From a virus (taxonomy: Duplodnaviria; Caudoviricetes), in IMG/VR virus record IMGVR_UViG_3300036406_001093, positions 1 through 57,536 of that record: a stretch of 57,536 nucleotides of DNA. One strand, 5' to 3'. The notes below the pieces were generated by a model, which was given only the letters and a program-made list of their open reading frames with translations, searched no databases and was not told the origin of the DNA. The first letter of the stretch is position 1. Every line of letters starts with the position of its first letter. Of the stretch, positions 34,371 to 35,418 are shown one piece after another. The position numbers and the translations under genes are program-made.

Positions 34371-35365
34371 CAGTCGATCTCCTTGAGGGACCACGCGGGG
34401 AACTTGAGTTCGTGAATGTGGCCGTACCCGGCGGGTAGCCAGTTGCCGGTCTCGCGCCGCACCTCGATCTCTTCGAGGTCATTGGCGATCCACTGCACGC
34501 ATCGCTCGACGAGCGCGTCAGGGAGACACACCACCTGCACTTCGTGCGGGGGCGTCGTGGACATGGCGACGAACACCATGCCGCCGTGGCCTATGCCAGC
34601 GGCCTTGGCGATCTCTCCGTAGAGGGCCGCTTGGTAATGGTAGCCGTGCGAGAGGACCGACGAACTCCACGTCTCAAGCGGGCGTGCATCTCGACACGTC
34701 TTCCAATCGAGCACGGTGCCGAGTTCGGTCGCCGCATCGAAGCGGCAGCGGAGCAGGTGGCCGTCGTCGCGATGGTGGATCGCCGACAACTCGTGCCATG
34801 CGATCTGCTCGTACAGATTGACGGCGGCAGAGTTCCTGAAGAACTCGGCGAGGATCGCCTCGCAGGTGGCGAGGTCGGCCGGGCTGGCGAGCGGCAGGTC
34901 CGGGTCCTGATCGGCCACCCACGCCTTGGCCGCCGCCGAGGAGGAGAGTCCACCGGAGGCGGTCACGTACTCGGCGGGGATTTCCGAGAGGTGACCGCGG
35001 TATTTCCCGGGCCCGAACTCAAGGGCGGCATGAACCACCGACCCGAGTTGCAATGCCCCCGAAGAGAAGGGAGACTGGGATCGGGTGACGTAGCGCTGGT
35101 CGTACCAGACCGGGCCACGGTGCCTGAAGTCCCACAGCGGGGACTTCGAGGGGCATGGCAGCCCGTGGTAGACGCGGTTCGGGAGACCTTCAACCAGAAG
35201 GGTCTGCCCGGCCGCCAATGTTTCCATGGCGGCCGGGAGGTCGGCAAAGTCGGGGCGAGAGGATTTGAACCTCCGACCTCTACGTCCCGAACGTAGCGCT
35301 TCCTCGCCGCCGTCCCCACGAAAGGCGTCGGCCATGTCTTCGATACTTGTGTCGGATTCTGTCAT
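34370..35365 (-). CDS. RecE/exonuclease VIII-like PD-(D/E)xK nuclease (start 35365 or 35227)
   Basis: YH, S.S, GSVVH, E, CRFD, DWKT, YHYQAALY. Confidence 0.85.
   Translation of the reverse strand: MTESDTSIEDMADAFRGDGGEEALRSGRRGRRFKSSRPDFADLPAAMETLAAGQTLLVEGLPNRVYHGLPCPSKSPLWDFRHRGPVWYDQRYVTRSQSPFSSGALQLGSVVHAALEFGPGKYRGHLSEIPAEYVTASGGLSSSAAAKAWVADQDPDLPLASPADLATCEAILAEFFRNSAAVNLYEQIAWHELSAIHHRDDGHLLRCRFDAATELGTVLDWKTCRDARPLETWSSSVLSHGYHYQAALYGEIAKAAGIGHGGMVFVAMSTTPPHEVQVVCLPDALVERCVQWIANDLEEIEVRRETGNWLPAGYGHIHELKFPAWSLKEID
35250..35300 (-). other. attP core: 3' 51 nt of tRNA-Pro(CGG), not a complete tRNA
   Basis: AGCG-CTACG-TTCGGGA-CGTAG-AGGTC-GGAGG-TTCAAAT-CCTCT-CGCCCCG-A; no matching 5' acceptor or D arm; next to the integrase. 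Confidence 0.88.
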
Positions 35366-35374
35366 CGGTATGCT
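35347..35374 (+). promoter_or_regulatory. Putative integrase promoter TTGTGT-16-TATGCT
   Basis: Sigma70-like hexamers ~35 nt upstream of the int ATG. Confidence 0.45.
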
Positions 35375-35389
35375 GCCGGAAAAGGACGC

Positions 35390-35418
35390 AGTGTACAGGG
35401 GTACAGGTATGAGGTCAA
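35390..35418 (-). promoter_or_regulatory. Sigma70 promoter TTGACC-17-TACACT for the leftward replication operon
   Basis: Near-consensus hexamers with a 17-nt spacer; overlaps the int start codon. Confidence 0.65.

Follow-up and report, generated by a model that had tools for sequence, protein, structure and literature searches.

A phage attachment site within the 5' end of a RecE-type exonuclease gene: a probable integration-operated switch in a lake phage of Planctomycetota

Several mobile elements are known in which the integration state decides which promoter reads a gene, or which product a gene encodes. Passages of PMC5812530 describe two integrative and conjugative elements (ICEs) of this kind: the tec genes of Tn916 have no promoter in the integrated element, and transcription reaches them across the joint once it is excised, whereas in ICEclc the Pcirc promoter comes to lie upstream of int on excision. 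ICEKp1, as presented in parts of PMC13023037, displaces the terminator of tRNA-Asn, with int driven by the transfer RNA (tRNA) promoter in the integrated state and by a promoter at the 3' end after excision. In BPs-type switches and in CyranoPS, according to sections of PMC3694055 and bioRxiv 10.64898/2026.10.29.762952, the phage attachment site (attP) lies in the 3' end of the repressor gene, and passages on tRNA-dependent lysogeny include attP sites that do not rebuild the tRNA (PMC10865867). Here we analyze the record IMGVR_UViG_3300036406_001093 (57,536 bp, linear, 97% complete, G+C 66.5%), referred to throughout as the window, which derives from a lake phage of Planctomycetota. Its attP lies within the 5' end of the gene for a RecE-like exonuclease, beside the integrase gene (int), and integration probably disconnects the RecE operon from its promoter and start codon, with excision reconnecting them.

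The late operon (major head protein, terminase, portal and tail proteins) runs leftward from 12.5 kb to 1 and continues from 57.4 kb to 36.6 kb, ending at 36586. It is followed by the rightward int and then by a second leftward operon, from 35.4 kb to 28.2 kb. Thus placed antisense between the late operon end and the RecE operon, int has as its neighbors the RecE gene and a gene for a 1251-aa structural protein. The leftward operon had been read as recE-erf-HTH-helicase in an initial annotation of the bare sequence, and each of its members matches the corresponding family. The RecE protein scores 41.1 bits against Pfam DUF3799 (PF12684; cut-off 26) and matches PHROG 412, exonuclease VIII, over residues 54-329 (E 3.5e-37). 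Genes for an HNH endonuclease, a PDDEXK-like protein and a dATP/dGTP-diphosphohydrolase-like protein come after the helicase. The elements considered below are, in window coordinates:

35418-36254, plus strand: int, armless tyrosine integrase, 278 aa (PHROG_1 integrase, E 4.4e-14; fold match)
35390-35418, minus strand: leftward promoter candidate P_L, with -35 TTGACC at 35418-35413, a 17-nt spacer and -10 TACACT at 35395-35390 (consensus scan)
35392-35405, no strand: perfect palindrome TGTACCCCTGTACA, operator-like, overlapping the P_L -10 and within the int 5' leader
35347-35374, plus strand: promoter candidate P_int, TTGTGT-16-TATGCT (pattern conserved in nine loci)
35333-35365, minus strand: two conserved in-frame RecE start codons, ATG 35365-35363 and ATG 35335-35333 (comparison of group-1 loci)
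35249-35300, minus strand: attP identity block, 52 nt, from position 26 of tRNA-Pro(CGG) to the first C of CCA (tRNA calls, host alignment)
35280-35296, minus strand: anticodon stem-loop, with stem 35296-35292 plus 35284-35280, loop 35285-35291 and anticodon CGG 35287-35289; presumed crossover region
35207-35237, minus strand: GC-rich RNA hairpin of 13 pairs without a U tract, enclosing the Met47 ATG (35227-35225) (z = -2.35, 96-nt stretch)
34370-35365, minus strand: RecE-like PD-(D/E)XK exonuclease (DUF3799), 331 aa including a predicted disordered leader of ~39 aa (Pfam, PHROG)
33696-34394, minus strand: Erf-type single-strand annealing protein (Pfam ERF, 26.1 bits, cut-off 25; PHROG 2324, E 7e-20)
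33202-33540, minus strand: small DNA-binding protein of the HTH_23 type (helix-turn-helix, HTH), ~112 aa (generic HTH_23 matches)
31673-33202, minus strand: superfamily 2 (SF2) DNA helicase (ResIII, Helicase_C and DEAD domains; PHROG 16, E 7.8e-56)

The tRNA character of the block is apparent from two programs and from its host counterparts. ARAGORN calls a tRNA-Pro(cgg) at 35249-35317 on the minus strand, and the Rfam tRNA model scores 28.8 bits at 35250-35311, just below its gathering score of 29. Comparison with real genes limits the true tRNA part of the call to 35249-35300, which comprises position 26, the anticodon arm, the variable loop, the T arm, the 3' acceptor strand, the discriminator and one C. 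The tRNA-Pro fragment first noted at 35300-35250 is therefore present, and the 51 nt at 35249-35299 are exactly identical to the tRNA-Pro(CGG) genes of three Planctomycetota metagenome-assembled genomes (MAGs). When the two are aligned, the identity with the host extends by a single base on the 5' side and ends with the first C of the host-encoded CCA. The host tRNA-Pro genes (L059-L061) encode CCA and every phage copy differs after GAC (GACT...; 35246-35249 in the window), so a rebuilt tRNA would need CCA addition. Read by eye, the alignment also places TTGCA(A/T), ~17 nt and TAAGAT before the host gene, so that promoters of the kind considered below for the phage are in use in the host, and terminator-like hairpins lie downstream of attB, the host site. 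On the evidence of these alignments, 35249-35300 is a genuine tRNA-type attP adjoining a tyrosine integrase.

By sequence alone, the integrase is weakly recognizable. Comparison of relatives gives ATG 35418 as its conserved start, rather than the longer-ORF (open reading frame) starts at 35226 or 35409. Against Pfam Phage_integrase it scores 21.6 bits, below the cut-off of 27.1; a single-sequence search of the PDB gave no match and a profile search only a weak one (E 0.0027, to an 'Integrase' entry). Nonetheless, R146, K169, R230, H251 and Y261 are invariant in seven Int homologues. The AlphaFold2 (AF2) model has a mean predicted local distance difference test score (pLDDT) of 69.9, with a poorly predicted C terminus, and matches the folds of lambda Int 75-356 (E 8.4e-7, TM score 0.51-0.53), XerA, XerH, Cre, the Tn1549 integrase and Brujita Int. 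These matches identify a two-domain protein, and as modeled Int is an 'armless' tyrosine recombinase with its catalytic residues. Its C terminus, ...APKPLG, carries no obvious tag. Family scans of the window proteins found no cI-like gene adjoining int, in agreement with the initial annotation, and the small ORFs beside int, among which a possible excisionase or recombination directionality factor was sought, gave no family match. The segment just after int (36294-36521) is 97% identical to L009, one of the related loci listed below, over 64 codons, compared with 87% for int itself. It holds a 75-aa ORF without family match and could be a small gene, perhaps for an excisionase, or a DNA element.

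A protein search returned 31 RecE homologues at E <= 1e-10. No close cultured phage is present in INPHARED, where the best RecE matches are below 35% identity. At the DNA level we compared the window with ten distinct related loci, listed here with the identity of their RecE to that of the window and the tRNA fragment they carry:

L009 (two records): 89-92%; 3' part of tRNA-Pro(CGG)
L052: 75%; 3' part of tRNA-Pro(CGG)
L053: 66%; 3' part of tRNA-Pro(CGG)
L010: 56%; 3' part of tRNA-Pro(CGG)
L055: 53%; 3' part of tRNA-Pro(CGG)
L011: 49%; 5' half of tRNA-Pro(CGG) (type B), 2980-3060
L012 (two records): 49%; type B, 2990-3060
L054: 46%; type B, 3000-3080
L015 (two records): 32%; tRNA 3' part with anticodon CAT, in frame, 2929-3822
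L017: 35%; tRNA 3' part with anticodon CAT, in frame, 1388-2095
L005, coordinates also recorded for a type-B fragment: 3860-3980

Gene order is constant in every locus with enough DNA: structural gene, int, tRNA fragment, RecE, Erf, HTH and helicase. Two relatives' records with the same layout have direct terminal repeats, which means that the layout is that of the packaged or replicating form and not of a prophage.

The relatives differ in which piece of tRNA they carry at this position. The window and five other loci have the 3' part of tRNA-Pro(CGG), and their T stems show compensatory changes (GGAGG/CCTCT, GCACG/CGTGT, GCTGG/CCAGT). The three type-B loci carry instead the 5' half (the 5' acceptor strand, D arm and anticodon arm) in unchanged orientation and position. 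In the two most distant loci, where RecE is 32-35% identical, a fragment with anticodon CAT occupies the same place, and the neighbor in L015 is an Int homologue (32% identity, E 8e-41). The 3'-part and 5'-half types of tRNA-Pro have only the anticodon stem-loop in common, ~20 nt with the sequence GCGCTACGTTCGGGACGTAG. As the sole shared stretch it is taken as the crossover region, and we infer that strand exchange takes place within 35280-35296 of the window.

Sequence identity changes at the same place. On the left of the anticodon arm L052 is 90% identical to L010 and on the right 72%, while against the window the values are 72% on the left and 85% on the right. L054 combines a group-1-like left arm (67-68%) with a group-2 right arm (72-80%), and its two arms are 68% and 61% identical to the window. 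Judged from these identities, the attachment site is a mosaic joint between phages. Two further homologues were seen as proteins. As aligned, P0006 begins with a leader of the L009 type, which changes at the anticodon loop to a continuation like that of type B; only the anticodon arm seems to be kept, so that the tRNA would be broken by integration. The leader of P0011, ERYVHTVEVVGSSPTLPT, resembles in its protein sequence another tRNA with a CAT anticodon.

As first noted, the tRNA fragment lies in frame within the long RecE ORF that opens at ATG 35365. The 331-codon ORF (34370-35365, minus strand) spans the whole fragment, which corresponds to leader residues ~23-39. Several observations suggest that this is a coding arrangement. 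The gap between the two conserved start codons is 30, 42, 42, 30 and 108 nt in five lineages, all multiples of three. Stop codons were counted in nine loci over a region set independently of ORFs, which began 60 or 90 nt upstream of the anticodon stem and ended at the conserved YH motif. The RecE frame contained one, compared with 20 and 30 in the other frames. In 11 related loci, the most distant at 32% identity, no stop interrupts the RecE frame within the tRNA-derived stretch. There is a 3-nt indel after the block, and indels preserve the frame. Two frames of the tRNA itself are used, one encoding ALRSGR and the other RYVRDVEV, and shifts on either side of it compensate; the frame that contains TAG is never used.

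The positions of alternative starts point the same way. From the block to the conserved domain, three of nine loci (L052, L011 and L054) lack any ATG, GTG or TTG, and in L012 and L055 the start codon after the block lies only five codons before the YH motif. Most homologues have Ile, Leu, Val, Ala or Ser in place of Met47, the window's own start after the block. In L017, GAAGGAG stands 7 nt before an ATG upstream of the tRNA-Met(CAT) fragment, in frame into the RecE domain, and in L015 an ATG is likewise placed upstream of the CAT fragment and in frame into RecE. L015 also has a three-codon mini-ORF whose stop overlaps the RecE ATG (TAATG). In the AF2 model of the 331-aa form (31-sequence alignment; mean pLDDT 84.8), residues 1-37 fall below 50 and residues 40-331 are confident. 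The fold begins with a helix at residues 40-48, which spans Met47. The tRNA-derived stretch is thus most likely translated, as a leader predicted to be disordered. The suggestion that RecE might lose its N terminus upon integration is, with a frame open in 11 loci, the better-supported part of the initial annotation.

The RNA between the block and the RecE domain contains the hairpin at 35207-35237, which starts 12 nt after the tRNA. We considered it as a conserved terminator and rejected this, since it is strong in the window but not conserved across six loci. L009, L052 and L053 retain it, with changes that are partly compensatory, and L010 and L055 do not. The consensus scan likewise found no terminator-like site between the fragment and RecE, where none had been visible at first reading.

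Upstream of the block, on the int side, are the candidate promoters. The leftward TTGACC-17-TACACT (35418-35390) proposed initially was recovered by the consensus scan and is the sole sigma-70-like match in 57.5 kb. The counts of 0, 1 and 0 compare with 1.6, 1.5 and 1.1 expected from shuffles, so the number of matches is not above chance, but the position and orientation of P_L fit an operon promoter. The -35 element overlaps the int ATG by one base. In all five group-1 loci TTGAC[CT]-17-TA[CT]ACT is kept while the spacer sequence varies, and the first base of the -35 is always the one that pairs with the A of the int ATG. For the facing int promoter, said to start at nearly the same point, the outcome is mixed. 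The scan, which asked for nine of 12 consensus positions, did not report it. Nevertheless, TTGNNN-15/17-TANNNT in the sense of int occurs exactly once per int-to-core interval in nine of nine loci, 43-52 nt from the int ATG (70 nt in L053), and is represented in the window by TTGTGT-16-TATGCT. With the usual 7-nt distance from the -10 element, transcripts would start at ~35381 rightward from P_int and at ~35383 leftward from P_L, ~2 nt apart. As read from their motifs, the two candidates face each other and overlap.

The spacing of the locus constrains where a promoter for RecE can be. The int ATG (35418) is 117 nt from the tRNA block, whereas the block is 22 nt from Met47 (35227). Since only these 22 nt separate the two, an operon promoter has room only to the int side of the crossover, where the conserved promoter element, the palindrome and the conserved RecE start codons are all found.

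The palindrome at 35392-35405 belongs to a motif, TGWACNNNNGTWCA, with two matches in the window against 0.03 expected. By eye, variants of it are found ~20 nt from the int ATG in the nine Pro-type loci. The second copy in the window, TGTACGGGTGTTCA (16671-16684, minus strand), lies between convergent genes, ~16-30 nt past the stop of an HNH-like gene (16700-17212). It is syntenic in two relatives (G403, G404), and a similar site is present in two others (G406, G407). TGTAC-N4-GTACA resembles the GAAC/GTAC-N4-GTTC boxes of the SOS response. We rejected the reading of the palindrome as a LexA box: the motif is not upstream of lexA in three of three candidate host MAGs, and its genome-wide counts equal those of a reversed-pattern control (4 vs 7 and 5 vs 3).

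Together these elements suggest how integration could act as a switch. Int would recombine 35249-35300 with a host tRNA-Pro(CGG) gene, with the crossover in the anticodon stem-loop, and the int side of the crossover would keep P_L, the operator-like palindrome, P_int and the RecE start codon or codons. At one junction of the prophage the host promoter would then be followed by the rebuilt tRNA-Pro, lacking an encoded CCA, and next by 22 nt, RecE from codon 47 onward and the rest of the operon. The other would hold int, P_int, the palindrome, P_L, RecE codons 1 to ~25, the tRNA 3' part and the hairpins downstream of the host gene. A crossover at this point would remove both the promoter and the start codon from the operon. 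In this way integration would separate the RecE-Erf-HTH-helicase operon from P_L and the RecE start codon and excision would rejoin them, such that full expression of the operon, and a RecE with its proper N terminus, would be obtained only from the excised or infecting circular genome.

A number of points weigh against this proposal. The promoters are known as consensus matches only, P_L at nine of 12 positions, and the TTGAC-17-TAnnnT element is absent at this spot in four group-2 loci. None of the window's three candidate RecE starts has a Shine-Dalgarno sequence, which the HTH gene does have, and the leader peptide is poorly conserved. As Met47 follows the block, a 285-aa RecE is still possible in a lysogen. 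With no terminator behind the rebuilt tRNA, transcripts from the tRNA may read through, and the operon might not be shut off. The analysis identified neither a repressor nor an excisionase. The RecE-profile scan of genome contigs (GTDB representatives) found no relative and no integrated form. Finally, the three type-B loci carry TTGC(G/C)(G/A)-16/17-CA(T/C)AAT 10-14 nt before the tRNA 5' end, as read by eye. With a tRNA-type promoter directly before the 5' half, integration would change transcription less in these phages. A tRNA rebuilt in a type-B lysogen would be found on the int side and so depend on a phage-borne promoter. The logic of the switch is hence not identical across the family.

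An integrated form was looked for in several further collections. The three MAGs that match the tRNA contain no phage copy. In 401 sampled Planctomycetota genomes there were seven weak DUF3799 matches, none with an adjoining tRNA, and no Int match at E <= 1e-15. Scanning viral contigs with the 20-nt anticodon arm gave 27 loci, six of them with RecE and Int and all six in the attP form; the remaining matches were unrelated full tRNA genes. Seven metagenome loci likewise included no integrated copy. The host order is represented by two genomes only, and the host tRNA type occurs in two of the 401 (G002 and G003). With a host lineage so barely sampled, the absence of a lysogen is weak evidence. 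The proposal that integration detaches the operon from its promoter is supported in part, by its geometry and by the conserved promoter-like elements on the int side, and not by attL or attR junctions, of which none was found in any collection searched.

Raw sequencing data gave a similar picture. The stretch is contained in 24 lake-water sequencing runs, none of which is on record as RNA. In four runs the Logan contigs are interrupted inside the 52-nt block, with records that end at 35258 or start at 35274, and so cannot link the two arms or distinguish attP from attL/attR. In runs X8, X11, X13 and X17 the summed contig depth is 250-900 over 35249-35300 and 5-60 elsewhere, which we attribute to the many host tRNA-Pro genes in lake samples. 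A loose end at 35299 in run X17 shows an L010-type left arm, indicating that related phages co-occur.

Other explanations of the locus have to be considered. Integration might exchange promoters rather than shut the operon off, placing it behind the strong constitutive tRNA-Pro promoter so that the downstream genes, that of the HTH protein above all, are expressed in the lysogen and RecE is beheaded; immunity, or repression of int, would then depend on integration. We regard this as a possible but rather unlikely account. The geometry allows it, as tRNA and operon are co-directional in all 11 loci and, in the window, 22 nt apart with no terminator-like site, and as the terminator-like hairpins downstream of attB would be displaced to the other end of the prophage. 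Read-through of this kind drives int of ICEKp1 (PMC13023037). An armless Int without a visible excisionase would need repression in the lysogen, and there are exactly two conserved palindrome sites per genome on which a repressor might act. The HTH protein is the fastest-diverging product of the module, with 55% identity to L009 compared with 87-91% for Int, RecE, Erf and helicase. Against this account, the window and L009 have the same palindrome yet such dissimilar HTH proteins. The protein resembles HTH_23 and IS21-type N-terminal domains, not CI or Cro, and searches for its function (Atlas, NCBIfam) returned generic HTH_23 or IS21-like leads only. Moreover, constitutive Erf and helicase would seem costly to a lysogen, and 3' processing of the tRNA would leave the downstream RNA unprotected. 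The HTH protein has a conserved C-terminal motif, DPTxxEI...W(S/T)xEE..RR(W/Y)VG, and its gene an AAGGAGG-like ribosome site.

Extending the exchange of promoters to a complete lysogeny switch based on topology alone is, in our estimate, improbable. In such a scheme the circle would link the facing pair P_L and P_int to a RecE gene with a leader made from host tRNA sequence, integration would behead RecE and leave the tRNA-Pro promoter to drive the rest, HTH would repress P_L and P_int through the two TGTAC-N4-GTACA sites only in the integrated state, to which immunity and prophage stability would thus be confined, and the sister phages with the 5' half would mirror it by putting the host tRNA under a phage promoter.

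The placement of attP could also be neutral, the site having settled in a mutation-tolerant leader while a repressor, perhaps together with internal promoters, controls the operon and integration plays no regulatory part of its own. That the leader is poorly conserved and predicted to be disordered, that it tolerates three different tRNA pieces and that Met47 is kept downstream of the block in the window are all compatible with this, and attP adjoining int is a common arrangement. Against it stand an architecture that is retained to 32% identity, even where the target tRNA has changed, with the frame open in every case, and the lack of space for a further promoter before RecE. Physical uncoupling follows from the geometry whatever its origin, and we consider a neutral placement unlikely. 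That the block is a mere leftover of an old integration or a tRNA-like RNA element, in a phage that no longer integrates at tRNA-Pro, is very improbable: no lysogen was found in any collection searched and the integrase is below the Pfam cut-off, but the host lineage is the sparsely sampled one described above, the block has exact 51-nt identity with host genes, its T arm varies among relatives with the tRNA variant, Int has invariant catalytic residues and the arms are exchanged exactly at the anticodon arm.

Two other regions of the window, away from attP, may be recorded here. Window 21861-25643 encodes a MoxR-like AAA ATPase and a DUF2201 metallopeptidase/VWA protein, and a protein with a CAP (cysteine-rich secretory protein) domain is encoded at 11867-12508, at the head of the late operon.

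If disconnection and reconnection of the RecE operon operate as proposed, a tailed phage would switch its early recombination/replication operon by site-specific recombination itself. Such a logic is on record for conjugative elements and, in a different form, for a few actinophage repressors. The leader would be a further case of a tRNA gene sequence translated within a protein. Moreover, the natural series of 3' part, 5' half, anticodon arm only and second tRNA shows how att site and target evolve with the frame preserved. Our literature search found no phage with attP in the leader of a RecE-type lytic operon and no translated tRNA-derived attP; a search on temperate phages of Planctomycetota found no study, and the switch would be a first handle on lysogeny control in these phages. 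The locus would thus be a new, phage version of the state-dependent switches of Tn916, ICEclc and ICEKp1 and of the integration-dependent BPs type, with a function that we infer from its arrangement.

In Tn916, ICEclc and ICEKp1, as cited above, genes at one end of the element are transcribed from a promoter at the other, through the joined att site, only in the circle, and the geometry of the RecE locus fits this. Here, however, the element is a tailed phage, and the unit concerned is a RecE-Erf-helicase operon rather than transfer genes or int. In addition, the att site lies inside a coding sequence, so that the first gene would also lose its start codon. The resemblance to BPs that had been remarked on holds for the small integrase, armless as modeled and without an evident excisionase, for an attP within a phage gene, such that viral and prophage forms encode different products, and for a proposed switch made of two DNA states (PMC3694055). 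In the BPs type, according to the same sections, integration removes the C-terminal degradation tag of the repressor. In the window phage it is the 5' end of an exonuclease gene that contains attP, and promoter, start codon and N-terminal leader would be lost; there is no int-rep-cro cassette. Because its attP lies in no repressor gene, the comparison with BPs is an analogy only. P0006, which seems to have kept an anticodon arm only, would break the tRNA, as do sites described in PMC10865867.

As an attachment site, the block has the features of tRNA sites with anticodon-loop crossover. It runs from the anticodon arm to the 3' end, would rebuild the tRNA, has a symmetric stem flanking the presumed overlap and adjoins int. 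Such sites are reportedly covered by the classification of tyrosine-integrase tRNA att sites made by Williams in 2002. Two properties set the present family apart from them: the block appears to be translated in a phage protein, and sister phages carry the 5' half with a promoter-like element. In lambda sib retroregulation, Mx8 intP and SSV1 int, expression depends on the integration state through the position of attP, and int is the gene affected. In the window phage, by contrast, int would keep its promoter, and it is the early recombination/replication operon that would be switched.

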